From NCBI GenBank assembly GCA_004431415.1, contig QPMI01000226.1, positions 1-64,000 of the forward strand: a stretch of DNA of 64,000 nt, written 5' to 3'. Position numbers and translations under genes: made by a program. Positions 1 through 60,847 of this stretch are shown in pieces. Each line of letters opens with the position of its first letter. Position 1 is the first letter of the stretch. The stretch comes from Cyanophora paradoxa CCMP329. Its lineage: Eukaryota > Plantae > Glaucophyta. The notes beneath the pieces were generated by a model. The model was not told the origin of the DNA, made no database searches, and worked only from the letters and a program-made list of their open reading frames with translations.

Positions 1-49
1 CTGCGCGCGGACCTTGGCCTGCACGACGCCCGCCGCGTTCAGCACCTTG
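1..49 (+). pseudogene. Fragment of the N-terminal region of the UL9-like helicase gene (inverted copy, runs off the window)
   Basis: Exact reverse complement of ~1879-1927 (CARTLACTTPAAFSTL), fused at 49/50 to the minus-strand copy. Confidence 0.8.
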
Positions 50-2526
50 CTTCTCGATGTCCAGCTTAGCGAGAGACTCGCGGGACTGCCTCCAGGCCAG
101 CACCGTGCTCCACAGATCGACGGGCTCCAGCGCGCCCGCCTCCAGCACGCTCCTGATCTCGCGCAGCCGCTGCTCCTTCTCCTGCTTCGGTCCGCTCGGG
201 TTTTGATCCTCCGTGACTTGCACGTTCATCAGCGCGCAGGTCGACATCAGCCGCAGGCGCGCTGCCACTGCGAGGCGCCGAGTGGGCATGCCGGCGCGGC
301 GGCTCCCGCGGTGGCTAGCCTTCAGGTCCAGGTAGCGCTGCATGTCGTCCGAGCTCTCGTCGTCGTCGCTCTCACGCCAGTGCGCAGCCGCCGCGCCGAC
401 CGCAACCGAGGGCGTCCGGTTCTTGCGCACGGCGACGAGCAGGTGCTCCCGTCGGGCGTGCTGCGTTTGCGCAGCCTTCTGACTCGAAACAGCAGCTGCA
501 CGATGTCGTCCGCCTCCAGCTGCGCGGGCTCCGCCTGGAACACGCCGTAGACCTTGTCAAAGTGCGCGTCCGAAAAGTCCACGCCTGCCCCGAGCGCGGA
601 AGTTGCGATGAGCACGTCGCAGGCCTTGTACGCGCCCTCCTCAGACACATCGATCGACACGATGCGCACTGGGCCCTCGTTCGTGAAGCGCACGCTCTTC
701 TCCTTGGCCTGCCCAACGATGAGCCCGATCGTGAACGGTGCGCCGCTGCCGTCCTCGGGCCCTGCCTCGAGCTGAGTCACGTACTGAGCGCCGCCCAGGC
801 TGAGCTGCTCCAGCGCCTGCTTCGCAATCTTCTCCTGCAGCTCGATCGCCTTGGCCGGCGTCTCCGCGATGATCATGGCCCGCGAGCGCCCAGGTCGGCA
901 CTGCACCATGATGTCCGCCTCGACGTGCGCCGGGCTGTCTGACACGCGCATCTTCCAGTCGCAGGTGCGATGCGAGTTGTACAGGAGCCCCAGGCGCGCC
1001 CCGACCTCCTGCGCCGACTCTGCCAGGTACGCGAGATCGACCGACCGAACGAAGCCGTCCATCGCCACGATGCGCGATGCCTTCATCACGCCGCGCCATA
1101 GGCCCACGCAGCGCGCGTTTCGAGGCACTGACCGCATACCTAGGTGCAGGCCGGTGGGCTCGAGGGTGCCGCTCGAGGTGAGGTGCTTCGTGAGGGAGGA
1201 GAGCTCGTCCAGCACGACCAGTAGCGGCGCCGTCGACCAGCCCTCCCAGTCCTCGAGCACCTTGTGCAGCGAGTCCCATGTGATGACGACGCACCTGCAC
1301 TCCTCATGGCGGAAGCCCCACTTGCCATGCGATCCCTTTGAGCTCTCCGGTGGCTTCTTGATGTCCATGTAAAGCACGGCGTCCTTTGACAACTCCGCAG
1401 CATCAATGCGACGCTTGAGGTCGCGGGAGAAGGCCCGGCGGCAAGTCACGAGGATCACTCGCCAGCCGCCTGCGAGGGCCGGGTCCAGGTACGCATCGAT
1501 CAGCGCCTGCGTCTTCCCGTGTTGAGTCCCGAGCAGATGACGTCGACCTGCGGCTGAGCGGATCTCGGGTTCTGCTCCAGCGCCCCGAATGCGGAGGTAA
1601 GGATCTTGCACGAGAGGTGGCGTTCATCCACTGCATTGACGCAAGCCTCCAGGCCGTCGACTCGAGCGCGATCAGGAGGGAGGGGAGGGCAATGTCGAAG
1701 GCGACAGGCTGCGAGGGATCGGTCACATAGCGGGTCTGTGCCACGCTGCCCGACTCCCCTCCGGTCCCCTCCCCTCGAGCTCGACTTCAATACCGTGCGC
1801 CTGGATGGAGATTCGAGCCGCCGGCGCCCCGGCTGACTCCCGCCAGGACGAGGGTGATGGACCCGTCGGGCTCGACTCCAAGGTGCTGAACGCGGCGGGC
1901 GTCGTGCAGGCCAAGGTCCGCGCGCAGCTCTGCCCCGCCTTCCAGATCTCGTCCCTCACCGCCTTGTTCTTGCGCAGGCGGTCCAGGAGCCGCTCCAAGG
2001 CCGGCAGGCTTGGGCTCGAATCCAGGAGAGCGCCCGGCTCCGGGATGGGCTTAGCGCGGGGCGCCGAGCTTCTGGATGGAGTGGGGAGGAGCTCCGCTCG
2101 CGGCCCGGGCGCCGGCCCCCGCAGAACGTAGCCCCCGTGCCATCCACACCGAGCTCCAGGCCGCTCGAGCTCCCAAAGAACCATGCCATGAGATCGCAAG
2201 CCTCCGGGCTCTGTAGGACGTAGGCAGCCTTGAATCCATTATCCAAGGGGCGAGAGAAAGTGAAGCCTCCGAACTTGGTTGCAAAGGCGCAGGCTGCCGC
2301 GGTGCTCGTCTCATCCTCGGCACCCGAGAAGTGGCTGGGGTGATGCAGGGCGGGTGGAAGACGCAGAAAGCCGTCCCAGGGTCGGGCTGCAGGCCTTCTG
2401 GACTTCGACGAGAGGGAATCGAACGAAAAAGCTGCACTCCTGCTCGCTCAGATCTATCTGCTGTACCCGGCCGGGCATACGGGCCAGGAAGGCGTCGACG
2501 TCGAGAGACACGCGTCCGGTTGCCAT
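50..2526 (-). CDS. Origin-binding-protein (herpes UL9/NCLDV OBP-like) SF2 helicase, copy A; only copy with the N-terminus, 3'-truncated, several 1-bp frameshifts
   Basis: Motifs SGLNTGKT (Walker A, split by a 1-bp deletion near 1516), VILVTCRRAFS, VITWDSLHKV, LVVLDELSS (Walker B), IVAMDG, ATSALGAGVDFSDAHFD, DIVQLLFRVRRL parallel the UL9 helicase motifs. Likely start ATG at 2526. Confidence 0.8.
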
Positions 2527-2614
2527 GGTCGTCTCTCTATAGCTAGGCTTGGAAATTCTAGATCTACTAGGCTAGTCAACGTCTGTTGGCTAGCTATAGT
2601 CGACGTCTGGACTG

Positions 2615-2752
2615 CTGTCTCGACCTTCTGAGATATTAATTTAAAGATCTGGGAGGGTCGGGACAGGCTCTGGTCCGTCTGGATCCGGACTGCTCAGCGG
2701 CTGTCTCGACCTTCTGAGATATTAATTTAAAGATCTGGGAGGGTCGGGACAG
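2615..2752. repeat. Two copies (86-bp spacing) of the inverted-repeat/AT-core element upstream of the helicase start
   Basis: ctgtctcgaccttctgagatattaatttaaagatctgggagggtcgggacag at 2615-2666 and 2701-2752; reverse orientation of the array unit at 8555. Confidence 0.9.
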
Positions 2753-3895
2753 GCTTTGGTCCGACCTTAAGCGCTCAACTAGACCCGGTTGACACCGTCT
2801 TGATCTCTCCTTCTTGGCGCAGCGGACGATGTGACGCGCAGACCGTCGGCCCGGCGGACGGGGAGGCGCGCGCGTAGAACTTCGGAAGCGCTAGCCCCTT
2901 GCTTGACCGAAGCTTAGAAAGTTTTGAGCGCACGTGAATGCGACACGTGTAGAGAGAAGGCAGAGCGCGCCGGAGCTAGCTTGCGCGGCCGAGCGCTCGA
3001 CCGCCTTTGCTCCTAAGCTCAGAAAGTTTTGGGCTCACGCGGTTGCTCCACGTGTTTCGACTCAAAACACAGTACCCCAACCCGAAAAAAAGCGCCCGGG
3101 CAGCGCATCTCGCAGCGCCCGGGCCCAGCGCTCCTTGCAGCACTTGCCAGAGGCACTAGCTTGCATTCCGCTCAGCCCGGAGAGCCGCCGCCTCGCTCCT
3201 TTCGATTCGGAGGTGCGCCTCACTTCGCAACCTCTTTCTCCGCACCACGGCTAGCTCCGGACCTCAGATTTTGGGCGCTGGAAAGCTCTCTCGACGCCGC
3301 ACTCACGCCGCCACGCGCAGGGTCGCTCGCGCCGGCCGCGGACCTTCGAAAGCTCGATGGCGCCCGAGCCGGAGCACTCCGCCGCATCCCGCAGGTGCCA
3401 GCTCGCTCTCTTGCCGCTCTATCCCTTGCATTTAGCACCTAGAACATGCCCCGCAACCTCGCGCTCGATTCGCCCGCGTCCGCTGACATTTGGTCTCTGA
3501 GCAGGTGCCGAGATTGGCCGCCGCGCCTTCCGCAACTCGAGCCGACGTTCGCGGCGACTTGCGCACGCTTCTAGATCTCGTTCTCAAGCCCGCGCATCGA
3601 TTCGGCGGCTCCGGCTCGCCTCCCCGCGCCTCCAGCCCCGCGCCCCACACCCGTTCTTGTCCTAGCTAAGCCCTCCCTTGTCCGCGGCCAGTCGCGGGCT
3701 ACGCGCATCGCGGATAGCATCAGTGGAGCTACGTTTCAGCGCTGGACGCAGGCCCGCCCGCCCAATCCCTCCCACCTCCCGCTCGCAGCACGCTCACTGG
3801 GCCGCAGGCAGCTTCGCGGGGAGCCGCTGGATTCGAAGCCGCGCACCTTCCCGCCCGTCCCGACGTCGTACGCGCTAACGTCGCCCGCGCCGCAG

Positions 3896-4545
3896 GTGGC
3901 CGCCAGGCCTCCTGCATCCAGGCCTTCGAGCCGGCGTGGCTGCGGGCGCAGCGCCTCGGCTTCTGGCAGGAGACGGCCTCCTGTCCCCTCACCCGCTTCA
4001 TCATCGCCCACTGCGCCGTCGACCCCACCACCTACGTCGCCGCCCCGAACACGGAGGGCTACATGACGAGCGTCGCGGGCATCGTCGAGTACATCGCGCG
4101 CACGGAGGGCCCCGACACCTCCGCCGCCGTCGGCGCCGACATCGAGAACGGCCGGCTGGACGAGACCCTCGCCGGCTTCGGCTCCTGGTGCCGCCCCTAC
4201 TCCTACAAGCTCGGCGGCGTCTGGCAGACCTACATCCGCGGCATCGTCCCCAAGGCCCCGCTCTCCCTCGGCGAGAGCCAGCCGGCGCTGGAGGCGATCG
4301 CGATCCCCGTCGCCCAGTTCAAGGACCCGGCGCCCGACGTCGGGCCCTTCCTCGTCAAGCCCCACACCAAGGGCAAGGGCAAGCGCACCCGCAACTCGGC
4401 GCCGGCCTTCCTCCCGCCCCAGCCCCCGCCACGGCCCCCAGCAGCGCCCCGGCCAGCAGCGCATCGACGAGATGCTGCCGCGCCAGGTCCGGCCCCGCGT
4501 ACCCCCGCCTTCCCTCCGTACCCCCCTCCCCCGCCCCCCTCCTGA
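3896..4545 (+). CDS. Hypothetical protein exon; weakly resembles the C-terminal winged-helix region of D5/P4-alpha-type primase-helicases
   Basis: Acceptor gctaac...ccgcag at 3895, clean C-ending codon usage, pattern PLTRFIIAHCAVDP...L..FG....GG...YIRGI. Similarity judged by eye only. Confidence 0.35.
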
Positions 4546-5046
4546 TCCAAGGGCAGGGTACCCCGACGAACGGCGGCGCGGGCCCGAGCGGCTACGGGAG
4601 CTCGGCCTCCTCCGCGAGCGCCGACGGCCCCAGCCCCCTCCCCGGCCCCGGCGCCGTCCTCACCGCGATCCAGGGCTTCGGGGCCAGCAGGAGGCCGAGC
4701 GGCGGGCGCTGGCGGCGCGCCAGGCGCGCGAGGCGGAGGAGCGGCGCCAGGCCCTCTGGGCCCAGCGCCTGCAGGCCACCATCGCCTTCCGCGCCGAGCT
4801 GGACTCCGGCTTCCGCGCCGGCCAGATCGCCGGGGCGGAGGCCTCGGAGCGCTGGCGGGCGTTCGAGGCGGAGTCGGCGGGGCTGGCGAAGGCCTCGGCT
4901 ACAGCTACCGGCGCGTGCCCGTGCTCAAGGACTACGCGTCGGCCGCGGCGCGGGAGGCCTCGCGGGCGGAGATCGACGCGGCGGAGGAGCAGGCGGCGCG
5001 CGAGGAGGCCGAGGACAACGCGCGCTTCCGGCACCTGCACCACTGA
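4472..5046 (+). CDS. Hypothetical protein with Pro/Gly-rich N-terminus and coiled-coil C-terminus (frameshifted)
   Basis: Pieces in different frames (QQEAERRALAARQAREAEERRQALW...; AEIDAAEEQAAREEAEDNARFRHLHH*) join if homopolymer indels are assumed. Confidence 0.35.
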
Positions 5047-5094
5047 GGCCCCGAGGCGGTATTTTTCTCAACCCTCCCTCAATTCGGTCCCGCG

Positions 5095-5281
5095 ATGGCC
5101 TTCGAAGCTTATCCTGCCCACTACTCGCTAGGAGCGCTGGCCGCGACCCTCACCTGGCTCCTCGGCGGCACCCCACGGCCTCGGCGGTCATAGGCGTGGG
5201 CTTCGGCTACGCCGCCAAGTCCCTCTACGCCCCGGCGGCGCCTCGCAGGCGGCGGCCGGCATGCGCCCCGCCGGGCGCTAA
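5095..5281 (+). CDS. Small putative two-TM membrane protein (frameshifted)
   Basis: MAFEAYPAHYSLGALAATLTWLLGGT then, with one C restored, PTASAVIGVGFGYAAKSLY; end approximate. Confidence 0.4.
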
Positions 5282-5375
5282 CTTTTCAAAGTTCATTCTC
5301 CCCTCCCCTTTTCCGAGTTCCGAGTCCGTTGGCGTTCCCTTTTAAATTTTCTTCATTCTCGTTACACGTTCGAAG

Positions 5376-5854
5376 ATGTCGAGCGCGGTAGAGAAGCTGC
5401 TGTGCACCGTGTTCAAATCGGATTCGCGATGCAGCAAGATCGGCGAGGCGGCGAGGGCTAAGGGCGGGGCGGCGGCGGAGGGGCCCAGGGTGAAGGCGGC
5501 GGATCCCGCGCCGCCGTCGCTGAAAACGATCAAGGGGGCGGGCAAGGGCAGGAGCGTGGGGGCGCTGCCCTCGTGGCGATCGCGCCGGGGCAGAGGGAGG
5601 CGGCGCACGCGGCGACGGCGGCGCTGGCCGCGCGGCGCCAGGCGGAGGCCTACCCGTGCCTGGGCCGGGGGCTGCACCCGCCGGCCGACCGCCCCTACGC
5701 CGTGAGCGCCTACTTCGACGAGGCCAACCGGCTGAGCTGCCAGGAGCTGTGCGACAACCGCATGCGGCGCGCCGTGGACGGGCACCTGCCGCTGCTGGTG
5801 GCGCTGGGCGGCTCGCTCCTGATGGTCTGGTACCTGCGCGGCCTGGTCATTTAG
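5376..5854 (+). CDS. Small protein with C-terminal TM anchor (one frameshift near 5565)
   Basis: MSSAVEKLLCTVFK... joined to ...CQELCDNRMRRAVDGHLPLLVALGGSLLMVWYLRGLVI*; intronless. Confidence 0.5.
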
Positions 5855-5880
5855 ATAGTTTTTCGAAGTCTAGGTCAAAG

Positions 5881-6224
5881 ATGGGCTGGGTGGACGCCGT
5901 GCTGACCAAGGTCTTCGGACCGAAGAGCGCGCAGCCGCCGCCGAGCTTCAACCTGGCCGCGGCGATCAGCACGACGATCGAGCGCAAGAACAACGAGCTC
6001 ATCCTAAAGAACGACGGCAAGCTTCCCTGGGCCGACGTGGCCGCGGGCGCACTCGGCAGCACGCTGACGGGAATCGATCGGACGGGCGCCGCGGGCGTGA
6101 AGGTCGGGCAGGCGGTTGCGGCCGTGCCGGAGCTTGCGATGAAGGGCTGGCACTACGCCAAGATCGCCGCCGGCGTCGCCGCGGTGCTCCTTGCGATCTG
6201 GCTCGCGTGGCAAGCGCCGCCGTC
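5881..6224 (+). CDS. Small membrane protein (Met-Gly start, C-terminal TM), truncated by the helicase copy B junction
   Basis: MGWVDAVLTKVFGPK...KIAAGVAAVLLAIWLAWQ, then abrupt switch to helicase sequence at 6225. Confidence 0.55.
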
Positions 6225-8015
6225 GACGAGCTCTCCTCCCTCACGAAGCACCTCACCTCGAGCGGCACCCTCGAGCCCACCGGCCTGCACCTAGGTATGC
6301 GGTCAGTGCCTCGAAACGCGCGCTGCGTGGGCCTATGGCGCGGCGTGATGAAGGCATCGCGCATCGTGGCGATGGACGGCTTCGTTCGGTCGGTCGATCT
6401 CGCGTACCTGGCAGAGTCGGCGCAGGAGGTCGGGGCGCGCCTGGGGCTCCTGTACAACTCGCATCGCACCTGCGACTGGAAGATGCGCGTGTCAGACAGC
6501 CCGGCGCACGTCGAGGCGGACATCATGGTGCAGTGCCGACCTGGGCGCTCGCGGGCCATGATCATCGCGGAGACGCCGGCCAAGGCGATCGAGCTGCAGG
6601 AGAAGATTGCGAAGCAGGCGCTGGAGCAGCTCAGCCTGGGCGGCGCTCAGTACGTGACTCAGCTCGAGGCAGGGCCCGAGGACGGCAGCGGCGCACCGTT
6701 CACGATCGGGCTCATCGTTGGCAGGCCAAGGAGAAGAGCGTGCGCTTCACGAACGACGGCCCAGTGCGCATCGTGTCGATCGATGTGTCTGAGGAGGGCG
6801 CGTACAAGGCCTGCGACGTGCTCATCGCAACTTCCGCGCTCGGGGCAGGCGTGGACTTTTCGGACGCGCACTTTGACAAGGTCTACGGCGTGTTCCAGGC
6901 GGAGCCCGCGCAGCTGGAGGCGGACGACATCGTGCAGCTGCTGTTTCGAGTCAGAAGGCTGCGCAAACGCAGCACGCCCGACGGGGAGCACCTGCTCGTC
7001 GCCGTGCGCAAGAACCGGACGCCCTCGGTTGCGGTCGGCGCGGCGGCTGCGCACTGGCGTGAGAGCGACGACGACGAGAGCTCGGACGACATGCAGCGCT
7101 ACCTGGACCTGAAGGCTAGCCACCGCGGGAGCCGCCGCGCCGGCATGCCCACTCGGCGCCTCGCAGTGGCAGCGCGCCTGCGGCTGATGTCGACCTGCGC
7201 GCTGATGAACGTGCAAGTCACGGAGGATCAAAACCCGAGCGGACCGAAGCAGGAGAAGGAGCAGCGGCTGCGCGAGATCAGGAGCGTGCTGGAGGCGGGC
7301 GCGCTGGAGCCCGTCGATCTGTGGAGCACGGTGCTGGCCTGGAGGCAGTCCCGCGAGTCTCTCGCTAAGCTGGACATCGAGAAGGTTGCTTCGCTTGCTC
7401 GCACGTCGATCGCCGCGTTCCTGGCCAAGGATCCGAGCGAGCTGACCGAAGGAGACGTCGCCTGGATGTGGGATTCGTTCTACTCCATCCCGCTCACTGC
7501 CGTGGTCACGCTGGTGCTGAAGCATGGCGCGGACGTTGCCGAGATCGTGCCTACTGCTGAGCGCCTCAAGGTATCGAAGGTCGTCGCGCTGTTCAAGAAA
7601 CTCTTCGGCTGGCGGGGTATGGAAAGCTCGCGGGGCGTGCTCTGTGGTCGGACGAAGCCTACGCGGCCCTGGCGTCGCCGGAGGGTCGGGAGGCGTACGC
7701 GGCTCTGCAGAGTCTGGACGAGCGCGCGCCCCGCTTCGATGCAGCGGACGGTGAGAAGAAGCGGCTCTCGCAGCAGTCTTGGCAAGTCATCAAGTACCTG
7801 CTGGAGAAGTACCTCGGAGTGAGACGCGCTTTCTCCGACGCGGACGGAGGGCAAATGGGCAGCCGAAAGCGACGCTACATCACGTGGAGGAAGACATGCT
7901 CGACGACGCAGTAGAGCGCCAGGCTAAGCAGGCAAGGGCAGGCATGGCGCCAAGCTTCCCAGAGGTTTACAACGTTTTCTCCGACTGCTATGCTCTCATT
8001 CACAGGCGCGTGTGA
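6225..8015 (+). pseudogene. UL9/OBP-like helicase, copy B (starts at Walker B, retains C-terminus)
   Basis: Near-identical to 9890-11680 (offset ~3665); 1-bp deletions in G runs at ~6720, ~7632, ~7886. Confidence 0.85.
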
Positions 8016-8116
8016 TTGTCGGATGTCACAGTGTGGACTTCGCGAACGGGATGCGCGTGCCAGTGTGTAAATACGAACGTGCGAATTCAAGTGACGTCAT
8101 GCATATGATCAATGAA

Positions 8117-8888
8117 TGTCTCGACTTTTTGAGATATTAATTTAAAGATCTGGGAGGGTCGGGACATTGCGAGGGCGGACGAGAGTGAGGGCATGCACTC
8201 TCTATGTGTCCCGACCTTTTCTGAACAACTCATGATTGCCGTATCATCGATCTGCATTTACTCACTTCGTTCTCTGTCGCTTGCACATGCGCGGTGTGGG
8301 ATTACTAATTAGATCTAGTCTCCCTAGCCCTCTGCGGCCGCCTTCCTGCCCCCCTGCAAAGAGCAGCTCAACCAAATCCTGTGGGGTCTGATTCATTGCA
8401 GACTCGCCTTCCCCGCCTGGGCCTGAGCTACACCAAGCTACGGTGAGTCCGACCAAGAGACGTGTCCGGACCCTCCCTACTTTCTTTATAGATTATTGGA
8501 AAGGTCCGGACACTAGAGGAGGGAGGGCGTACATAAGTAGTCTGACCAAGAGACGTGTCCCGACCCTCCCAGATCTTTAAATTAATATCTGAGAGGGTCC
8601 GGACACTAGAGGAGGGCGTACATAAGTAGTCTGACCAAGAGACGTGTCCCGACCCTCCCAGATCTTTAAATTAATATCTGAGAGGGTCGAGACACTAGAG
8701 GAGGGCGTACATAAGTAGTCTGACCAAGAGACGTGTCCCGACCCTCCCAGATCTTTAAATTAATATCTGAGAGGGTCGAGACACTAGAGGAGGGCGTACA
8801 TAAGTAGTCTGACCAAGAGACGTGTCCCGACCCTCCCAGATCTTTAAATTAATATCTGAGAGGGTCGGGACACTAGAGGAGGGCGTAC
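8117..8888. repeat. Ori-like region 1: single hairpin 8117-8166, variant hairpin 8462-8513, four 89-bp tandem units with hairpins at 8555, 8644, 8733, 8822
   Basis: Unit contains GTGTCCCGACCCTC-C-CAGAT-CTTTAAATTAAT-ATCTG-A-GAGGGTCG(G/A)GACAC; period 89 bp (cactaga at 8604, 8693, 8782, 8871). Confidence 0.95.
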
Positions 8889-9499
8889 GACTTAAACTCG
8901 CGCAGCGCCGCCTGCTCCTCGCTGAGGTTCTCTGACTTCATTCGATCGCTGTAGGGCTCGGGCGGCGTACCCTCCTTGACGTGCATCCAAAACAGCTGTA
9001 AGCACCTCCTCATGAGCTTGATGTACCTCTCGTCCCGTCTGACGTACCACGTCTGCACGCGCAGAGGCGTGAAACAGAAAAGTTCGGCCCAGTCGCGGCC
9101 CGTTATGTCCAACAGGCCCTGAAGTTGTGGCATGTAATAGGTAGGAACGCTATCGTAAAGTTCGCCCTTGTAAGGGCATTTCACCTCTAAAATCCTATCA
9201 TTTCCTATCAGTCCGTCGGGGCTCCCGGCGAGGAACGGCATTTCTTTGTGTTCGTGCAGTCCAGTGTGTTGAATGTCCACGTTATCGTTCAGTGCCTTGT
9301 AGATAGAGACCGCGAGGGGCTCGTAGTCGTGCCCGTAGGTTAGGGCAGGGTTGTCAAAGTTGTTTTCCTCCGCTATCCCGCTTAGCTCCGCCCACAGGCG
9401 GGCCCTGGATTTCCAGGGGTTTATGCCGCACGCAGCCGCAAAATTAGATGCAGTTAGTTTTTCACGGCGCGCCGCGTGCCACGCTGCGCTCCCCTGTTG
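8873..9499 (-). pseudogene. YqaJ-like viral recombinase/lambda-exonuclease, 5'-truncated copy
   Basis: Collinear with 12448-13075 but lacks the first ~10 codons; motifs LAGSPDGLI, LEVKCP, YMPQLQ intact. Confidence 0.85.
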
Positions 9500-11680
9500 A
9501 CCTCCGCATTCGGGGCGCTGGAGCAGAACCCGAGATCCGCTCAGCCGCAGGTCGACGTCATCTGCTCGGGACTCAACACGGGGAAGACGCAGGCGCTGAT
9601 CGATGCGTACCTGGACCCGGCCCTTGCAGGCGGCTGGCGAGTGATCCTCGTGACTTGCCGCCGGGCCTTCTCCCGCGACCTCAAGCGTCGCATTGATGCT
9701 GCGGAGTTGTCAAAGGACGCCGTGCTTTACATGGACATCAAGAAGCCACCGGAGAGCTCAAAGGGATCGCATGGCAAGTGGGGCTTCCGCCATGAGGAGT
9801 GCAGGTGCGTCGTCATCACATGGGACTCGCTGCACAAGGTGCTCGAGGACTGGGAGGGCTGGTCGACGGCGCCGCTACTGGTCGTGCTGGACGAGCTCTC
9901 CTCCCTCACGAAGCACCTCACCTCGAGCGGCACCCTCGAGCCCACCGGCCTGCACCTAGGTATGCGGTCAGTGCCTCGAAACGCGCGCTGCGTGGGCCTA
10001 TGGCGCGGCGTGATGAAGGCATCGCGCATCGTGGCGATGGACGGCTTCGTTCGGTCGGTCGATCTCGCGTACCTGGCAGAGTCGGCGCAGGAGGTCGGGG
10101 CGCGCCTTGGGCTCCTGCACAACTCGCGCCGGACCTGCGACTGGAAGATGCGCGTGTCAGACAGCCCGGCGCACGTCGAGGCGGACATCATGGCGCTGTG
10201 CAGACCGGGGCGCTGCCGGGCGATGATCATTGCAGAGACGCCGGCCAAGGCGATCGAGATGCAGGAGAAGATTGCGAAGCAGGCGCTGGAGCAGCTCAGC
10301 CTGGGCGGCGCTCAGTACGTGACTCAGCTCGAGGCAGGGCCCGAGGACGGCAGCGGCGCACCGTTCACGATCGGGCTCATCGTTGGGCAGGCCAAGGAGA
10401 AGAGCGTGCGCTTCACGAACGACGGCCCAGTGCGCATCGTGTCGATCGATGTGTCTGAGGAGGGCGCGTACAAGGCCTGCGACGTGCTCATCGCAACTTC
10501 CGCGCTCGGGCAGGCGTGGACTTTTCGGACGCGCACTTTGACAAGGTCTACGGCGTGTTCCAGGCAGAGCCCGCGCAGCTGGAGGCGGACGACATCGTGC
10601 AGCTGCTGTTTCGAGTCAGAAGGCTGCGCAAACGCAGCACGCCCGACGGAGAGCACCTGCTCGTCGCCGTGCGCAAGAACCGGACGCCCTCGGTTGCGGT
10701 CGGCGCGGCGGCTGCGCACTGGCGTGAGAGCGACGACGACGAGAGCTCGGACGACATGCAGCGCTACCTGGACCTGAAGGCTAGCCACCGCGGGAGCCGC
10801 CGCGCCGGCATGCCCACTCGGCGCCTCGCAGTGGCAGCGCGCCTGCGGCTGATGTCGACCTGCGCGCTGATGAACGTGCAAGTCACGGAGGATCAAAACC
10901 CGAGCGGACCGAAGCAGGAGAAGGAGCAGCGGCTGCGCGAGATCAGGAGCGTGCTGGAGGCGGGCGCGCTGGAGCCCGTCGATCTGTGGAGCACGGTGCT
11001 GGCCTGGAGGCAGTCCCGCGAGTCTCTCGCTAAGCTGGACATCGAGAAGGTTGCTTCGCTTGCTCGCACGTCGATCGCCGCGTTCCTGGCCAAGGATCCG
11101 AGCGAGCTGACCGAAGGAGACGTCGCCTGGATGTGGGATTCGTTCTACTCCATCCCGCTCACTGCCGTGGTCACGCTGGTGCTGAAGCATGGCGCGGACG
11201 TTGCCGAGATCGTGCCTACTGCTGAGCGCCTCAAGGTATCGAAGGTCGTCGCGCTGTTCAAGAAACTCTTCGGCTGGCGGGGTATGGAAAGCTCGCGGGC
11301 GTGCTCTGTGGTCGGACGAAGCCTACGCGGCCCTGGCGTCGCCGGAGGGTCGGGAGGCGTACGCGGCTCTGCAGAGTCTGGACGAGCGCGCGCCCCGCTT
11401 CGATGCAGCGGACGGTGAGAAGAAGCGGCTCTCGCAGCAGTCTTGGCAAGTCATCAAGTACCTGCTGGAGAAGTACCTCGGAGTGAGACGCGCTTTCTCC
11501 GACGCGGACGGAGGGCAAATGGGCAGCCGAAAGCGACGCTACATCACGTGGGAGGAAGACATGCTCGACGACGCAGTAGAGCGCCAGGCTAAGCAGGCAA
11601 GGGCAGGCATGGCGCCAAGCTTCCCAGAGGTTTACAACGTTTTCTCCGACTGCTATGCTCTCATTCACAGGCGCGTGTGA
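9500..11680 (+). pseudogene. UL9/OBP-like helicase, copy C (whole helicase core and C-terminus, N-terminus missing)
   Basis: Walker A SGLNTGKT through to ...YALIHRRV*; frameshifts in G runs at ~10509 and ~11298. Confidence 0.85.
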
Positions 11681-11781
11681 TTGTCGGATGTCACAGTGTG
11701 GACTTCGCGAACGGGATGCGCGTGCCAGTGTGTAAATACGAACGTGCGAATTCAAGTGACGTCATGCATATGATCAATGAA

Positions 11782-12463
11782 TGTCTCGACCTTTTGAGAT
11801 ATTAATTTAAAGATCTGGGAGGGTCGGGACATTGCGAGGGCGGACGAGAGTGAGGGCATGCACTCTCTATGTGTCCCGACCTTTTCTGAACAACTCATGA
11901 TTGCCGTATCATCGATCTGCATTTACTCACTTCGTTCTCTGTCGCTTGCACATGCGCGGTGTGGGATTACTAATTAGATCTAGTCTCCCTAGCCCTCTGC
12001 GGCCGCCTTCCTGCCCCCTGCAAAGAGCAGCTCAACCAAATCCTGTGGGGTCTGATTCATTGCAGACTCGCCTTCCCCGCCTGGGCCTGAGCTACACCAA
12101 GCTACGGTGAGTCCGACCAAGAGACGTGTCCGGACCCTCCCTACTTTCTTTATAGATTATTGGAAAGGTCCGGACACTAGAGGAGGGAGGGCGTACATAA
12201 GTAGTCTGACCAAGAGACGTGTCCCGACCCTCCCAGATCTTTAAATTAATATCTGAGAGGGTCGAGACACTAGAGGAGGGCGTACATAAGTAGTCTGACC
12301 AAGAGACGTGTCCCGACCCTCCCAGATCTTTAAATTAATATCTGAGAGGGTCGAGACACTAGAGGAGGGCGTACATAAGTAGTCTGACCAAGAGACGTGT
12401 CCCGACCCTCCCAGATCTTTAAATTAATATCTGAGAGGGTCGGGACACTAGAGGAGGGCGTAC
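11782..12463. repeat. Ori-like region 2: single hairpin 11782-11831, variant hairpin 12126-12177, three 89-bp tandem units (hairpins at 12219, 12308, 12397)
   Basis: Same unit as region 1, with one fewer copy. Confidence 0.95.
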
Positions 12464-13104
12464 GACTTAAACTCGCGCAGCGCCGCCTGCTCCTCGCTGA
12501 GGTTCTCTGACTTCATTCGATCGCTGTAGGGCTCGGGCGGAGTTCCAGCCTTCACGTGCATCCAAAATAGATGTAAGCACTTCCTCATGAGCTCGATGTA
12601 CCTCTCGTCCCGTCTGACGTACCACGTTTGCACGCACAGAGGAGTGAAGCAAAAAAGTTCGGCCCACTCGCGGCCCGTGATGTCCAGAAGTCCTTGCAGT
12701 TGAGGCATATAATAGGTAGGAACTCTATCATAAAGTTCGCCCTTGTACGGGCATTTCACCTCTAAAATTCTATCATTTCCTATAAGTCCGTCGGGACTAC
12801 CGGCGAGGAACGGCATTTCTTTATGTTCGTGCAGTCCAGTATGTTTAATGTCAACGTTATCGTTCAGTGCCTTGTAGATAGAGACCGCGAGGGGCTCATA
12901 GTCATGCCCATAGGTTAGGGCAGGGTTGTCAAAGTTGTTTTCCTCCGCTATCCCGCTTAGCTCCGCCCACAGGCGGGCCCTGGATTTCCAGGGGTTTATG
13001 CCGCACGCAGCCGCAAAATTAGATGCAGTTAGTTTTTCACGGCGCGCCGCGTGCCACGCTGCGCTCCCCTGTTGCAAAGTCTCGCAATTTGTATCGGTAT
13101 GCAT
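12448..13104 (-). CDS. YqaJ-like viral recombinase / lambda exonuclease family protein, intact 218 aa
   Basis: QGSAAWHAARREKLTAS, YGHDYEPLA, FLAGSPDGLI, ILEVKCPY, YYMPQLQG are hallmark PD-(D/E)xK YqaJ motifs; intronless and lower GC than host genes. Confidence 0.92.
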   Translation of the reverse strand: MHTDTNCETLQQGSAAWHAARREKLTASNFAAACGINPWKSRARLWAELSGIAEENNFDNPALTYGHDYEPLAVSIYKALNDNVDIKHTGLHEHKEMPFLAGSPDGLIGNDRILEVKCPYKGELYDRVPTYYMPQLQGLLDITGREWAELFCFTPLCVQTWYVRRDERYIELMRKCLHLFWMHVKAGTPPEPYSDRMKSENLSEEQAALREFKSYALL

Positions 13105-13154
13105 AGCGTAGCCTCGCAGTAGCGTTTAGAATTTCTTGATGTGTGCAATTGCAA

Positions 13155-13817
13155 ATGTCGGATGCAGAGGAAGCGCCCAGGGACGTGATCGCACAGTTCA
13201 TAGATCAGGTCAAGGACCTTAGACGCTGGGTGGTTGAGCGGGCCTCGCGACCGAATCGACAGCGCCAACCCTGGCCGGTGCTAGAGCTGGCCCAGGCAGG
13301 GTGGCTCGATTCGCATCACAACGCTGGCGGTGCCCATTACTTTCGGAGCCACGACGAGGGCAGGATTATCGACGAGTTCAAGCGCATCTGGTTCGCCCTG
13401 GGCTCCAAGCTCAGCATACTCTCGACCCTCCCGGACCACATTCGCATGCAAATCCTCGAGTGGTACGCGAAGGCAAGGGACTCGCAATGGGACGACGTAA
13501 ATTTGCGCGACCTCTCGCGCTTGCGCTCGGCTGTGACGGCGTATGTCACAAACTATGATTATCACGTCAAAAAGCCCCAATTCGAAGTTGAGCCAATTCC
13601 GATGAATCTGGTACCCCTGGGATGGGAAGAGTACCCCGAGTACTCGTGGAACAGGGGCCTCAACCCCCGCGCCAGGCCCTGCCAGCCCGCCCGCCCCACC
13701 GATAAACGCCCCGCCCCGCGTGACGTCAGACGGGACATACGCGAATGGGAGGAGTGGAGCAACGACCCGAAGAACTGGCTACCCGGGAGGCGGAGATGCG
13801 GAAGCGCGCGAGGCTGA
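13155..13817 (+). CDS. Orphan intronless protein (~220 aa), divergent from YqaJ
   Basis: Open frame with normal amino-acid composition in lower-GC DNA; ATG 50 bp from the YqaJ start. Confidence 0.6.
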   Translation: MSDAEEAPRDVIAQFIDQVKDLRRWVVERASRPNRQRQPWPVLELAQAGWLDSHHNAGGAHYFRSHDEGRIIDEFKRIWFALGSKLSILSTLPDHIRMQILEWYAKARDSQWDDVNLRDLSRLRSAVTAYVTNYDYHVKKPQFEVEPIPMNLVPLGWEEYPEYSWNRGLNPRARPCQPARPTDKRPAPRDVRRDIREWEEWSNDPKNWLPGRRRCGSARG

Positions 13818-13881
13818 TGCCGGCGACAGGTACCCCGACCGCGAGTAGGGTACAGGTATAAATTCTCACCGAGCCGCGAGC

Positions 13882-14378
13882 ATGGCGCGAACACGCGAGT
13901 CCGACGTGCTGTACAACAACGGCGACCTGGACGGGGAGATTCGACAGCGGAACGTGGACTTGGAGGATGCGAACGCAGTGCTGGAGGGAGGCGCACGTCC
14001 TCAGGGGGCGGCTCGCCGGCGGAGAACTTCATGGAGCGCGTGCTCTACCTTGTGCGCTGGATTAGAGACGAATTCCACGACGAGCGAGAGCTCCCGGACA
14101 GGGAGATGATCAGGGCCGCGGGCTTGATGGGTATGACAGAGAACCCGAGATCGTACCTGAGGCGCGAACGCAGGGATCTGAACGGCGATTGGGCCGACCT
14201 GCAAGCGCTGTGGACGGCCTTTGCGAACCGCAAGAGCCAGATCCTTGCCCTGCCCGCGCAGGTACAGCAGCGTATCATTGATTTCGTAGCCCCTGGCGCG
14301 ACGAGTCCCTCCAGCAGCCATTCATGCAACCACGCTTCCTCTCCGGGCTCAGGAGCGCGTTCTTCCACTTGGCCGTGA
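13882..14378 (+). CDS. Orphan intronless helical protein, one apparent frameshift near 14010
   Basis: MARTRESDVLYNNGDL... and ...FMERVLYLVRWIRDEFHDE... in adjacent frames. Confidence 0.5.
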
Positions 14379-14960
14379 GCAGCGACCGGTATTTCACACC
14401 GCAGAGGATCGTTCACGGCGAATTCGGCATACCCCCGAGTGGCTGAATTTTGCCACCGTACCCCTTCCCCACCCCGCCTCGAAGGCCCCCCTCCCCTACC
14501 CCGAGCAGCGTGAGTCACTCAAGCGTCAGAGGGAGGTACGCGAATGGATGGACGACACCAGCCACTGGGTACAGGGCGAGGCCGAATTACGCAAGTTCGG
14601 AAGGTTCGGGCAGTAACAGCGGGGGGTACAGCATTCAGTTAGAGCCTGAGCATCGTTAGAGGCCGGGAGGCCCCCCGAGGGGTACACCGGCTGTTACTCC
14701 CCGCGTCGGTTAGTGCTAGCCCCCCTGTTAGTGCAGCGTGTACCTGATCGCAATATAACACCCAAACCTCCGCGACGCGTGACTCATGCAACCTCCGAGG
14801 GTTAACAATACATTGACAGCGAAGGGGCAAGCTCGAGAGCTCAACGCTTCACAAAGGCCCACAGATATAGTTAAGACGGCGCATTTCAGTCTTGCTGTAC
14901 CCGAGTCCCAGCGGAGCTATACCCGGCATTCTTCGGCCGACAGCAGTCGGGCCTCCAGCG

Positions 14961-17521
14961 ATGGCGGATGTGACGGAGAAGCTCGCGGATGCGAGCCTAG
15001 AGGATGACAAGGAGGTTGTCATCGGCCCGGACGGGAAGCCAATCAGTGCGCGTCGCCGTCGCTGCTGGCGCCCCGCCGACGCCGCTGGCGCCTCGCCGAC
15101 GCCGCCGGTCATCTGTATTGGCGTTCGACCGCTAACTGCGTGTTTCTGCGTGACAGGCAAGAGCGCCTTGAAGAAGCTCAAGAAGCAGCAGGAAGATAAG
15201 TCAAGCCGGTAGCGCGCGTGGCCGTCTCTGTCGTCCGCGTAAGCATTCGCGCTGACGAGGTCTCGGCATGTCGCGTTTCCCGTCCCTTCCGATTCGGCCT
15301 GCGCACCTGAGGCAAAGAAGGCTGCGAAGGCCGCCGAGCTCGAGCAGAAGCGAGTAAGCCGCTCGTTGGCGCGATGATCAGTGCGCGCACGCTGACAAAG
15401 CGCTCCCGTGCAGCTCGAGGAACAGAAACGCCGCCTGGAGGAAGCTGCGCACATCAAGATCGAGGAGGACAAGAGTCTCCCTCCAGCGACTCGGGTGCGG
15501 TCTAGGTATTAATGAGGAGAATCAGTTTCTCATCCCGCACTGTGGTTCGCGCAACAGATCAAGATTCGTGATTGCCCCAAGCATGAGGGCCAGCGCGTGA
15601 AGGTGTATGGGTGGGTGCATCGCTTGCGCCAGCAAGGGTCCAGCCTTGTCTTCATTGTCCTCCGTGATGGCACCGGGTTTCTGCAGTCTGTCCTCAACGG
15701 CAATATGGTTTGCGTCTTGCATTTTCACAAGATGCAGCGGTTCATCTTATCGCCTTACGGCCCAGGCTAAGACGAAGGAGGCGATTCTCCTCAATCGTGA
15801 GGCTTCAGTCTGCATCTACGGTAAGCTGGTCGTGGACCCCCGCGCCGAGGGCGGGCGCGAGCTTCAGGCAAGCGACTGCCCCCTTCCTTTCCTTTTATGC
15901 CCTTTTGATTCCTCAGCAGGCGGACTACTGGGAGCTCGTGGGCGCGTCGCCTTCTGAGGTGGAGAACATCCTGAATCAGGACTCCAACCCGGACGTGCTG
16001 CTGGACAACCGCCACATGGTTCTGCGCGGAACGAAAACCTCGGCGATTATGAAGCTGAGGTACTGTCTCTCTTTTCGCTCAAGAACCCAGTTGTTTGCTA
16101 AAGACGCGCAGGAGCATCATCACGCACGCGTTCCGCTGCCACTTCATCGAGAAGGGCTTCTTCGAGGTGACTTGCCCGACGCTGGTGCAGACCCAGGTCG
16201 AGGGCGGGTCTACTCTTTTCAAGCTCAACTACTATGGCGAGGAGGTAGGTTTCCCTCTCTCTTTTTTTTGGATGCAGTGATTTTAACCATCCCGCAGGCC
16301 TACCTCACCCAGTCTTCCCAGCTTTACCTGGAGACCGTTATTCCCTCCGTTGGCGATGTCTTTTGCATAGAGCCTTCTTACCGTGCGGAGAAGAGCCGCA
16401 CCCGTCGGTACGCGTGATGGGCTTACTGTCTTGCTTAGAGCCGACCAGCTCTTCAGGCATTTGTCTGAGTTCACACACCTGGAGGCCGAGATGCCGTTCA
16501 TCGAGTTCGAGGACCTGCTACACATTATTGAGGACATGGTCCGTTTTGGTTTCACCTTGGCACGGGGCTGTGTGGGCTGACTTCGCTCGTTCTCGCTCAC
16601 TGTCAGTGTGTTGACGTTTTCGAGCGTGTCATGCGCGAGAATGGTGAGCTCATGAAGTCCGTCAACCCGACCCCGCCCGTCGTGAAGAAGCCCTTCCGGT
16701 AGGCAGAACTCGCCTGCATTTCCAGTGCAAGCTTATCCTCTGGCAGGCGCATGGATTATGCCGACGCGATTAAGTTCTGCCGTGAGCACAACATCTACAA
16801 GGACGAGGAGTCCAAGACTCACTTCGAGTTCGGCGATGACATTCCGGAGCTGCCTGAGCGCCGTATGACTGACATGATTGGCGAGCCCATCCTCATGTGC
16901 CGCTTCCCTGCTGCCCTCAAGTCCTTCTACATGCAGAAGGTTCCTGGTTTCCAGTTTTTGCACTCGTTTGTCGTTTTCCTGAGATTGTTTCAGTGCAAGG
17001 ACAACCCACTGCTCACCGAGTCTGTTGACCTCCTCATGCCTGGCGTCGGAGAAATCGTTGGCGGGAGCATGCGTATGTGGGACAAGGATGAGCTTGCGGA
17101 GGGCTACAAGCGCGAGGGTATCGATTCCAAGCCCTACTACTGGTACACCGACCAGGTTCGACAAATGCCTTGACATTTGTCTTTTTTAAAGAAGTCGATA
17201 AAAGCCCATATCTGGCGTTCTTTGAATGGCACTTTCAAGGCCCCAAAGAATGTCTGGGGGTCTTCAGGCTTTCGCCTCTAGTCCTGAATTTTATGGGCAA
17301 CAATAATTGACCGCTTCTGTTAGGGGGTGAAGGGGCTTATTCTCCTCATCCCTAGTAGTAGACGGTCACATCTGACTTCCTGCCTGCAGCGTGTGTTCGG
17401 CACCTGCCCTCACGGTGGCTTTGGGCTCGGGATTGAGCGCTTCCTGGCCTGGATGCTTGGTCAGGACCACGTCCGCAATGTGTGCCTCTATCCTCGTTAC
17501 ATGGGGCGTTGCAAGCCGTAG
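14961..17521 (+). CDS. NARS1: Cytosolic asparaginyl-tRNA synthetase, multi-exon
   Basis: [103 protein letters not shown]...[10 protein letters not shown]. Confidence 0.97.
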
Positions 17522-18275
17522 GTCATACAGCCTAGCAAAAGATGCCTTGTTTTAAATTCAGTGTTCATTGGCAAATACTCATCCTATCTAGATAGGAGTG
17601 CTGCCCCTGCCGTCTGCAACGCGTCTGCCCCAACTAGGCTCACCGAGCCCCGTTCCGATCCGGATCCGATCCGATGATCCTTCAAATTTATATTTCCAGA
17701 TCGATATCTGGCAACTTGCAAGGCAACTTGCAACCTAGGCCTGCAAGGCTAAGGGCCCCGGCCCACGTGTCACAGTGTGCTAGACTCTCAGACATCGACC
17801 GATCGCGATAGACTCGAGACTAGAGAGCACACCGTACCCGGTGGAACCATCACGGCGTACGCGTGATTGCTCATGATCACAGATGCCATCATATATGCTG
17901 CTAGTTCACTGAGTCAACATCATGGCATCTGCATCTGTGCGCATGCATGCGATCTAGATCTACATATGATCAAATGCAGGCCCCAGGCGCCGGCCCGCGC
18001 CGCAGCGGGGGTTCTACTAGGCCCTGAGGGCTAACTTAGTAAGCTTAAGCTTAAGCTTGAATGAAAGATCATCATGGCATGACTCGATGAGGCACTACTA
18101 GGCTAGTACCGCGGGGCCGCCCGGGCCGTAGTTCAACGGTTCTGTAATTTGCTGGGACATCGCCTGCCGGGGGCGCCACAGTACTGTAGTACCAGTGCAT
18201 ACTTGCATACTTGCAGCTGATCTCGAGTTCCAAGGCTCGTGCAAGCATCTCAAAGTTCCAAGTGCCGGCAAATGC

Positions 18276-18560
18276 AGGTCTTTGATTATGATAAGGGGGC
18301 AGGTCTTTGATTATGATTAGGGGCCGGACATCTTTGATTCCGATTCCGATTAGAGGTTTGAACAACGGAGCCTAAGCCTTGAAGGTCGGACGTCTTTGAT
18401 GGCGATTAAGATTGGGGGTTGGACGACGGAGCCTACTAGGCTAGGTCGGACGTCTTTGATTGCGATTATGATTATAGAGGGTTGGACGGCGGAACTTGAT
18501 GCCGGACGTCTTTGATTGCGATGACGATTTTATGATTAGAGGGTTGGACGACTTTTGATT
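18276..18560. repeat. Degenerate minisatellite, core (GGAC)GTCTTTGATT
   Basis: About 6-7 copies of the tctttgat core with variable gatt-rich spacers and gggttggacg tails. Confidence 0.75.
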
Positions 18561-18679
18561 GCTGCTAGCAGAAAGATGATAATGCCGCATATTACTCTCC
18601 TTAGGGGCCACGCAGGGCCCGGCCGGCCAGCTCGCTGGTGCGCTGAGCCTGCGGTCGCGGCGGCCGCAGTATCACTTAA

Positions 18680-19724
18680 CTACAGCCCAATATCCTCCTT
18701 GGCCTGCGGAAGAACAGGAAAAGTAAGCTTCGAGTATGCCTAACATCAGCGGGGATCATATGCACCTTGGAGGTCCACCCCTTCTCCTGCAGGGCAAGCC
18801 GAAGATTCTTGATACGCTTGCGGTTGGCACCGAGGTCGCTCTTCCCCAGCCTGCTCGCGGACCTGTATCCAACCGTCCGGCCATCCGTCTCAAAAAAGAA
18901 CTGCGGCAAACATATATCAGCGCCCTTCGTCCGAGCCGTAGCGGCCGCGGCTTGTGGAAATCCGCGACGAGGCAGCGGTTGCGCATGCGCATGCGGGCCT
19001 TGTTTTAAAACAAAGATCTAGAGCGGCCACCCTCACGCCTTGAGACCCCAAGACCCAAGGCCACTCCTACAAGCCTACAAGGAGACCTCCACATCGTCGG
19101 TGTAGCCTACAAGAGGCGTTTCGAACTCAGCGTAGAGATATACACTCCCGTCCTTCCTGCGATCCTCTGCAACTACTGTGACCTGCAAAGAACGAAATTA
19201 AAGTCCTTCCCCCTTTATAGCAACCCCGATTTCGACCCCAAAAAACCAAGGACCACCTTCTCGCCGGATTTTCCAAATACGCTCTTGAGATCAGAAACGG
19301 CCTGAGATACGCTCTTTGCAGACGTTCCAGGCGTATTATATGTCCACGGATCTGGATGCGGTAAATACGTAGGCGCACCACTAGCGGCGCAAGGCTCACA
19401 AACGAAATTCGCTGGATCCCGCGCGTAGGTCGAAATGCAGTTCTCGCTGCCCGCGGGGCAAGTCTGAAGCTTGTTCCCGTAGACCCCGAGATCCTCGGGC
19501 CTCTTCCCCCTCGCAAGGCCGCTAATGCCCGGAATGGCTGCGAACGCGGCGAAGCTGAACATACGCCGGCCGGTCTTGAGCTTGCGCTCGGGCTCCGGCA
19601 CGCGCTCCGCCTCGCAGCGAGACAGAGGCCGAATGGGGGTCGGCGAGCATGTCGATCTGGAGATGCTTACCACGCGCGCCCCGCTGAAGACGCTCAAGCC
19701 GGCGAGAGGGACGAAGGATGTCAT
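18680..19724 (-). CDS. DUF1499 family protein, plastid/thylakoid-lumen targeted, 5 exons
   Basis: MTSFVP transit peptide, RR-hydrophobic Tat-like signal, CPAGSENCIST, YAEFETPLVGYTDDVE|FFF, YRSASRLGKSDLGANRKRI. Confidence 0.88.
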
Positions 19725-19942
19725 TTTTTTCTCTGTGGCTTGGGGTACAGGAAGGGGCCGGAAAAGTGAACCGTCGCGGCTGCCGCTGCCGCGCCTCTTT
19801 CAACGCTACAGCGATTCGAGATGAACTCATCTTTGTACCGGCGGCTCGTTGCATCAGCACTGCGGCAGCGCTTGGACCGATCAGCTGAGCTCAGCGCAGG
19901 CCGGCCAGGGAAGGGAAGAGTTTCGCCGCCGCGGGACCAGCT

Positions 19943-22282: not shown

Positions 22283-22438
22283 CCTAGTAGCCTAGTAGTA
22301 CTTGCTCAAACATGTACACCGCGCGCGCACACACGATCGATCGCGACGTCGACTTGCAAATATTGAAATTGAAATTAATTAACGCCGCCGGGCCGCAGCG
22401 CTGCCAGGCTGGGAGTCGATCAATTGCCAAGCTTTTAA

Positions 22439-23448: not shown

Positions 23449-23957
23449 TGAAGTTGTTGTTTACTAAGTTAACAGTGTGCACTGAAACGATGCGCCGCTT
23501 GGCGGCGCCCTCCGCGCATGCCATTGCGCATAAACGTACGCATATGCATACGGCTCTGTGCACGCGTACGTGAGCGCTGGGCCGGGCAGGGATCCCCGGA
23601 GTCGATCGATCAGTTTCAAGGAAGCGCCGGGGGGTACGTGCATTCATTTGTTTGACGCCAGGCTGGCACTCGAGGAAGCTAAAGCTATCTAGCCTGAGCT
23701 CGAGCTAAGCGCTACAGCGCGAGCGCAGTACAGCCGTTGAGTTAGTATAGCTGCTAAGCTAACGTTGGTCTGGATCGCAACCGGGGCGACCTCGGTGTCG
23801 GAGCTCCTGGTGGGATCGACGTGCTTGCACTATCATCGAGCAGGTAGTCCGTCGTCGAGCTCAGGTAGTCTTTACAGCAGAGAGCGCAGAGCTTCGGTGT
23901 CCGCCAGTTGAAGCTGGCTAAGGGACAGCGGCCGGCAAGCGGCTCCGGGCCGGCCAA

Positions 23958-53173: not shown

Positions 53174-60505
<7,332 letters not shown>

Positions 60506-60847
60506 CGCCCGCGACGTCCACCCCCGTCCTCTCCCCTCCCCAGGCTCCCCTCCACCACCACGGTGCCCACCCTGTATTGCGTATGCACACTGCAGTCGCC
60601 GCGAGTCTCGTATGTGTTACGTTCTGTCCCGACTCCGGAATTTTAAACTCGTAAAGAAATCAAATGCAAGCTTCGAGCTTTAATTGATTTCATGCCATGA
60701 TGGGCACTGTTTCATGCGCACTAGTACTGCACACAGTGGCACTTAAAAAGCTTGTCGATCCACGGCCCCCGCCCCGGCGCCGGACTGCAAGCTTAAGCCG
60801 GGGTCGGCCTCTCATGTTAGCTATGCGCATGCAATGATGCCATGATA

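Follow-up and report, generated by a model that had tools for sequence, protein, structure and literature searches.

A UL9-type helicase cassette in place of part of a probable SF3 helicase gene in a dispersed, integrated element of Cyanophora paradoxa

Gene content and layout of the locus

The subject of this analysis is an integrated genetic element at the left end of a 64,000-nucleotide stretch of the genome of the glaucophyte alga Cyanophora paradoxa CCMP329 (assembly GCA_004431415.1, contig QPMI01000226.1, positions 1 to 64,000 of the forward strand; the whole stretch is referred to as the window). An earlier note, made from the letters alone, had proposed that positions 1 to 14,400 carry a minimal initiator-origin-recombinase module of a new kind of replicon, consisting of a UL9-type origin-binding helicase, palindromes resembling the herpesvirus origin oriS and a YqaJ recombinase. 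All three components are real and the element is, as proposed, integrated in the algal genome; however, no copy of the helicase gene is whole within the window, and the locus is scrambled. Specifically, positions 1 to ~14,862 are a rearranged copy of a dispersed, integrated element family; within these first 14.9 kb, the helicase gene is present in three partial copies, the YqaJ gene in two and a 50-bp palindrome 13 times. The element runs past 14,400 to ~14,862, has at least five more open reading frames (ORFs) than the note had listed and, rather than being a minimal module, is a larger multi-gene, multi-copy backbone, other copies of which carry a superfamily 3 (SF3) helicase. The stump of such an SF3 helicase gene at 3905–5046, which the earlier note overlooked, is the key feature of the locus.

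Three junctions, at 50, 6212/6225 and 9500, interrupt the stretch. Short-read contigs take a different course at each of them, so most members of the element family do not share the scrambled order seen here. At the extreme left, positions 1–49 are an inverted duplicate of the helicase 5′ region 1879–1927 joined to the cut end of the first helicase copy, and contigs diverge before position 50. From the right end inward, the layout with the UL9-type helicase (UL9 layout) consists of a terminal region, a right-arm ORF, YqaJ, an array of 89-bp units, a palindrome, the UL9-type gene in reversed orientation, two palindromes, a spacer, the SF3 stump and three small ORFs with hydrophobic segments, followed by sequence absent from the window. 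The missing genes, which according to the earlier note may lie left of the window, would in intact copies lie beyond 6212 rather than simply to the left of position 1.

Copy A of the superfamily 2 (SF2) helicase of the UL9 type (50–2525, minus strand) has its start and is cut at its 3′ end at 50, while copy B (6225–8015, plus strand) and copy C (9500–11680, plus strand; helicase core and C-terminal domain) are both truncated at the 5′ end. We estimate that the full gene encodes ~1,035 amino acids (aa). The frameshifts listed for the region are single bases missing from G/C runs and are restored by short-read contigs; a pseudogene reading was, therefore, rejected at the places listed. In copy C, the contigs have one extra G, at full or near-full depth, at each of 10507, 11278 and 11296; once an X is placed at these three positions, the reading frame continues uninterrupted through 727 codons as far as the stop. 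Copy A is covered by contigs from 1188 to 2643 with 13 small gaps, and its N-terminal frame was only partly rebuilt. Copies A and C give a ratio of nonsynonymous to synonymous substitution (dN/dS) of 0.26 (308 codons, p 0.005), and a real haplotype block, also found in the short reads, distinguishes copy B from copy C. Separately, very high depth was seen in run X16 near 11.3–11.7 kb.

The second enzyme is a nuclease of the YqaJ/lambda-exonuclease family, encoded by one whole gene (12448–13104, minus strand, 218 aa) and one copy truncated at the 5′ end, with the first ~10 codons lost (8873–9499, minus strand). The whole gene matches the Pfam family with E 1.9e-28 and 100 bits (cut-off 22) and TIGR03033 with 97 bits (cut-off 68), in agreement with the original call. 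Between the two copies, dN/dS is 0.07 (208 codons, Fisher p 2e-13) at a dS of 0.25, showing that YqaJ has been under selection.

Independently of read depth, relatives of the ORF at 3905–5046 were found as 43 gene models on 42 contigs, in a search that took in gene models of at least 329 aa. Among the host gene models returned by the homologue searches as a whole, three (P0002, P0015 and P0049) appear to derive from the window locus. The depth of single contigs over the helicase is 32–40 times that of a contig of the host class II tRNA synthetase gene in the same run, and right-arm contig and spacer reach 31–44 and 29–30 times the depth of the neighboring host gene, respectively (two DNA runs in each case; these multiples are per-contig values, treated as estimates, and a summed depth is not a copy number). 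A free episome is not needed as the cause of the high depth, because the dispersed contigs explain much of it. The tRNA synthetase gene that served as depth reference (14961–17521, plus strand, many short introns) lies outside the element. In both DNA runs, the contig that begins at 14,834 already has single-copy depth; we therefore place the element end near 14,862, and a 31-letter word overlap puts it at 14,860–14,863, within a terminal region (14431–14863) without a long ORF. The end at 14860–14863 may read ...CA, with a positional uncertainty of ~3 bases; CA ends are left by retroviral-type integrases.

A UL9-type helicase and its proposed exchange with an SF3 helicase

The assignment of the helicase to the UL9 type is borne out by several lines of evidence. 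The Pfam family Herpes_ori_bp matches copy C (window 9500–10507) with E 3.2e-7 and 29.3 bits (cut-off 20), while an ORF begun at Met 9731 and lacking Walker A has no Pfam match. Paralogues elsewhere in the host genome score 21.7 bits (P0001) and, below the cut-off, 18.1 bits (P0003). A profile search of 1.84 billion proteins returned 27 matches, five from the host and 22 distant, and 16 of the 18 distant matches tested contain Herpes_ori_bp. [quoted passage not shown] Likewise, for a model of paralogue P0001 with a mean predicted local distance difference test (pLDDT) score of 66, the HSV-1 OBP is the best match among solved structures (Foldseek E 2.5e-15 versus 2.8e-9 for the next family; Z 21.3 versus 17.6). 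Based on Pfam, profile search and fold, we conclude that the helicase is of the UL9 class and belongs to no cellular SF2 family.

For the C-terminal half, we modeled paralogue P0050 from an alignment of host sequences and one metagenome sequence. Residues 547–825 of the HSV-1 OBP, which comprise the UL9 DNA-binding domain, rank first among 48,161 chains, weakly (Z 5.2; 138 residues aligned at a root-mean-square deviation (rmsd) of 4.2, low-confidence model), and there is no viral fold match at E≤0.001. In a test of the pattern only, primase motif I was found in none of four Cyanophora proteins versus 12 of 17 distant matches; the one primase-pattern match of the window helicase falls at residues 4–10 and is not common to P0003 and P0004. 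The NCBIfam family CyRepA1 (NF042913) matches the helicase core with E 6e-15, at 55 bits versus a cut-off of 200. The host genome contains three helicase subfamilies, and the other two are 64% and 50% identical to that of the window over 250 residues.

The ORF at 3905–5046 (plus strand) is the 3′ stump of a gene for a probable SF3 (D5-like) helicase of ~1,500 aa, broken at 3905 and devoid of the ATPase motifs, whereas the central part of the ~1,500-codon gene holds Walker A and other SF3 motifs. The motifs sought, namely Walker A, Walker B, motif C and an arginine finger, line up weakly, as judged by eye, with a phage helicase that has the Pfam domain DUF5906 (E 0.04 in the collection searched), and the only direct Pfam match of the gene is AAA_22, below its cut-off. 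A profile of the SF3 protein against PDB sequences gave nothing meaningful, P0036 had no match among plasmids, and the N-terminal 335 aa encoded by the SF3 gene had none in the Atlas. Related-locus scans also found no relative of the SF3 protein or of YqaJ in viral contigs and none of the helicase in viral contigs or metagenomes; these scans used exact short motifs and are weak negatives.

Among the 43 related models, 21 have the SF3 core and 19 have the UL9-side DNA of the window upstream; P0027 has that DNA downstream, and two are unclassified. The SF3 layout is also seen in the short reads, as a loose end exactly at 3905. Since 21 of the 43 models keep the SF3 part and 19 have UL9-side DNA at its position, a UL9 cassette of ~5 kb, with palindromes on both sides, occupies the place where other copies have the 5′ three quarters of the SF3 helicase gene, which it appears to have replaced. 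A spacer (2752–3904; depth 29–30 times that of the host gene) moves with the cassette. The depth of YqaJ and of the array would allow their presence in both layouts. Because the UL9 copies keep a stump without ATPase motifs, the SF3 layout is presumably ancestral. A second SF3 stump (P0024) has its breakpoint ~nine codons further upstream and lies on the same contig as a helicase of the third subfamily (P0051), two gene numbers away. The coexistence of three subfamilies only 50–64% identical and the second stump with its different breakpoint raise the possibility that the cassette and its palindromes together form a replication module that is itself mobile and on more than one occasion took over a capsid-less integrating element, yielding a herpes-style initiator-origin replicon that runs on host polymerase in an algal nucleus; we regard this as unlikely.

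The RNA seen over this part of the element runs in the other direction. A spliced transcript antisense to the helicase (50–2660, plus strand) has 10 splice joints among those listed, spanning 50–117 nt and nine of them labeled GT..AG, and its introns are of host size. The joints occur in run X15 alone and in none of three other runs examined; runs X15–X17 are only presumed to be RNA. Seven joints leave a 330-codon frame open (50–1488, plus strand), with a chance probability of ~0.04 under two null models, and a likely alternative joint breaks this frame. The transcript could be either a noncoding RNA filtered by decay or a young overprinted gene, and it may arise when transcription from the former promoter of the SF3 gene reads through.

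Candidate origins and interpretation of the element

The element contains 13 palindromes of 50 bp (52 bp with flanking bases in the arrays) and two lone arms. Eleven palindromes are near-identical and two are degenerate, and in all of them 17 of the 22 core positions are A/T, as expected from the AT-rich cores first noted. In one degenerate palindrome both arms have changed symmetrically while spacing and A/T content are kept. Five palindromes that were folded have z-scores of −3.8 to −6.6, with none of 200 shuffles equally stable. Within the window, the palindromes are confined to the element: the best match in the 49 kb outside it is 26 of 50 positions, and of the occurrences of the 10-bp arm pattern, 28 are within the element and one is outside it. 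Two palindromes (2616–2751) lie upstream of the helicase start, the pair beginning 91 bp from the ATG at 2525, which matches the distance of ~90 bp originally given. One follows copy B (8117–8166), and one lies 102 bp past the stop of copy C (11782–11831), inverted along the gene relative to the upstream pair. The others are in two arrays of 89-bp units: one of 4.9 units (8446–8888), with one palindrome per unit and one of these degenerate, and one of 3.9 units (12110–12463), the first palindrome of which adjoins the YqaJ stop codon. The pattern has no match in viral, metagenome and GTDB contigs, and Rfam has none in window 1–20000. A miniature-transposon reading was rejected, as no target-site duplication was seen by eye. 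Loose ends at 12121 and 2616 reveal other copies with a differently built palindrome variant and variant flank, so that the sequence of the site varies within the element family.

In oriS, inverted boxes surround an A/T spacer (PMC12543377). Because the palindromes share this plan, keep a fixed 50-bp span and a constant A/T core, change symmetrically in their arms and flank the gene, our working hypothesis is that they are probable replication origins read by the helicase. In this scheme, helicase dimers would engage both 10-bp arms, which are spaced 30 bp apart, and melt the A/T core. Because no primase motif or polymerase was found, host polymerase and primase would copy the element DNA. YqaJ would resect ends for recombination, and such recombination may have produced the mosaic copies and the helicase swap itself.

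An ORF of 62 aa (5095–5281, plus strand) is weakly hydrophobic and has no known function, one of 159 aa (5376–5854, plus strand) has a C-terminal hydrophobic segment and no PHROG match in its 3′ part, and a third (5881–6212, plus strand), which has a hydrophobic segment and a length of at least 110 aa, is cut by the rearrangement and runs on in other copies. The right-arm ORF or ORFs (13155–14430, plus strand) comprise ~400 codons if frameshifts are sequencing errors; profile scans found no family, and a repeated domain is borderline, with 31 of 1000 shuffles scoring equally.

Building on the dispersed copies, the two layouts, the breakpoint, the UL9 class and the selection on YqaJ, all of which are shown, we favor on balance the following explanation: the stretch belongs, as a copy in rearranged form, to a dispersed family that has integrated in the genome and probably represents a small DNA virus of polinton-like or mriya-like type; in this family the UL9 cassette replaced the SF3 part, and the flanking palindromes are likely origins. 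Its capsid and integrase genes would be expected in the arm beyond 6212. Several observations weigh against this explanation. The element ORFs scanned contain no capsid, packaging ATPase, integrase or HUH gene, and no VLTF3, mriya-type capsid or giant-virus hallmark gene. The UL9 recognition motif RVKNL is missing in six of six proteins checked; the P0001 match runs past the helicase core, yet the whole-protein rmsd is 20; and the P0050 C-terminal match at Z 5.2 is tied with unrelated helical hairpins in a model with a mean pLDDT of 40. What RNA was seen across the helicase is antisense and spliced, and summed read depth cannot be taken as copy number. Palindromes in SF3-layout copies as well, if present, would weaken the link to UL9. 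Finally, Herpes_ori_bp occurs in none of 156 glaucophyte elements catalogued in PMC12220804 (Table S6), a count weakened by the loss of the match in frameshifted gene calls.

That same absence from the host's 156 capsid-anchored elements (PMC12220804) would suit a capsid-less integrating replicon that depends on a helper or the host, similar to the one proposed in the earlier note, though of ~12–15 kb and with interchangeable helicases. Such a replicon would also account for ~10 kb of element without a structural gene and for the introns that the SF3 gene seems, by eye, to have, and its nearest named bacterial family is the plasmid initiator CyRepA1, for which the match, at E 6e-15, falls far under the cut-off. 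However, the arm beyond 6212 is outside the window, the small compact ORFs with hydrophobic ends resemble virion membrane proteins, and the host has an abundance of capsid-bearing elements, the helicases of which vary; we consider such a replicon improbable, if a serious contender. An amplified fragment of an endogenous giant virus is very improbable: the nearest helicase folds come from giant viruses, in which YqaJ is common, and such insertions are reported in C. paradoxa (PMC12344493), but the sharp right end ~100 bp from a host gene, the dozens of near-identical copies on separate contigs and the lack of any hallmark gene among the scanned ORFs speak against it.

Two further proposals concern parts of the favored explanation. 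The element may be as described while its palindromes are transcript-end hairpins or recombination sites. This stays under consideration because one palindrome adjoins the YqaJ stop codon; another lies 102 bp past a helicase stop, Mimiviridae transcripts end at palindromic hairpins (PMC4402537), and the sites on either side of the helicase gene are inverted relative to each other, like those of invertible segments. Against it, two palindromes precede the helicase start, the conservation of sequence, spacing and A/T core exceeds the needs of a hairpin, tandem arrays would fit protein-binding sites better than terminators, and no recombinase was found; we judge it rather unlikely. Doubtful, although quite conceivable and compatible with our favored explanation, is that the local scrambling at 50, 6212/6225 and 9500 is an assembly artefact in an otherwise real family. 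Contigs diverge at each junction, none among the listed pieces bridges one, and the region has many one-base errors; on the other hand, copies B and C differ by the real haplotype block, the YqaJ copies differ at a dS of 0.25, and P0027 has a similar join on another contig.

Relation to known systems and neighboring host sequence

The proposal of a new kind of replicon is not supported, because a UL9-like helicase without polymerase beside YqaJ or a homologous nuclease occurs in mriyaviruses and in SmDNAV. Mriyaviruses (Yaraviridae) likewise lack a DNA polymerase, have mutually exclusive SF3 and UL9-like SF2 helicases, and carry a PDDEXK nuclease homologous to YqaJ. However, the primase domain of their SF2 helicase is intact and every one of them carries HUH, capsid and ATPase genes, none of which was found in the part of the element seen (bioRxiv 10.1101/2024.02.29.582850); moreover, they have no integration genes, whereas the element is integrated many times and keeps the stump of the displaced helicase. 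Endogenous polinton-like viruses (PLVs), including those of C. paradoxa, resemble the element in dispersed multi-copy integration and compact genes (PMC10120064, PMC12220804), and their replication modules are often swapped, including SF2/SF3 exchange (bioRxiv 2026.10.13.758929, 2026.06.19.733378). PLVs have capsid, ATPase and integrase genes, none of which was seen in the part of the element within the window; conversely, YqaJ and origin-like arrays, both present in the element, are not mentioned in the parts of the PLV literature examined. Herpes_ori_bp is recorded in PLVs of Streptophyta (15 of 34), Rhizaria (9 of 1393), Ochrophyta (3 of 89) and Chlorophyta (2 of 126) (PMC12220804). For C. 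paradoxa, 366 capsid genes (PMC10120064), 156 catalogued elements, of which 85 have an rve integrase (PMC12220804 Table S6), adintovirus-like contigs (PMC8502044) and an enrichment of viral-origin genes among methylated genes (PMC12344493) are on record; elsewhere, YqaJ appears in a figure legend on Phaeocystis viral contigs (bioRxiv 2022.07.28.501842). We suggest that the element may work like a polymerase-less small DNA virus, and we place it in neither PLVs nor mriyaviruses.

HSV-1 UL9 is the best solved-structure match over the whole length of P0001, and both lack an active primase (PMC12543377, PMC13483431); oriS and the element sites share inverted arms around an A/T core (PMC12543377). 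In contrast, the element helicase is only ~15% identical to UL9 and lacks RVKNL, its sites have another arm sequence and occur several at a time in arrays rather than as a three-box origin, and the herpes polymerase, primase and ICP8 have no counterpart in the element. The nearest relatives in sequence and fold are the AEP-UL9 primase-helicases (mimivirus R8, African swine fever virus pF1055L, SmDNAV), and SmDNAV, like the element, combines a UL9-like helicase and YqaJ with the lack of a DNA polymerase (bioRxiv 2026.08.29.747986); nucleocytoviricots with AEP-UL9 are much larger, and the primase motif sets the distant matches (12 of 17) apart from the Cyanophora proteins (0 of 4). Weak plasmid matches are mostly to CyRepA1 genes, the initiators of cyanobacterial plasmids (PMC10899382), or DUF3854 genes, while the element has no DUF3854 domain that we could find, resides in a eukaryotic nuclear setting and scores 55 bits against the CyRepA1 cut-off of 200.

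No description of this element family was found in the literature searched, beyond the reach of which lay most subscription journals and bioRxiv supplements. Both the interchange of SF3 and UL9 helicases in mriyaviruses and UL9 domains in PLVs of other protists are already known; what is new is that, in a single genome, a UL9-type cassette that lacks a primase and carries candidate origins is seen taking the place of an SF3 helicase. Such swaps are usually inferred from trees alone, while here both states and the scar are present together. UL9-like helicases outside herpesviruses are called origin-binding by homology, and in the accessible parts of the literature examined no origin is shown for them; because candidate sites here surround a primase-less UL9 member in a culturable, probably haploid alga (PMC6704402), binding is directly testable. 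The exchange bears on how small DNA viruses change their mode of replication and on the origin of the herpesvirus initiator.

Several features of the host sequence to the right of the element were also observed. An intron of the tRNA synthetase gene at 15196–15306 has AT..AC ends in both presumed-RNA runs and is possibly a minor-spliceosome intron. A short high-copy repeat at ~18591–18670, of high depth in all four runs examined, lies in or beside a spliced minus-strand host gene, and degenerate short repeats with a 25–60 bp period (18274–18550) lie upstream of it. Beyond 20,000, where ORFs were judged by eye only, two copies of a 1-kb dispersed repeat (22438–23451 and 60847–61881) are 83% identical, one or more large host genes at 24477–35658 consist of Gly/Ser/Ala-rich repeats of 166 aa (498 bp), and a host gene at ~55600–60000 appears to encode a chromodomain-helicase (CHD-like) protein.

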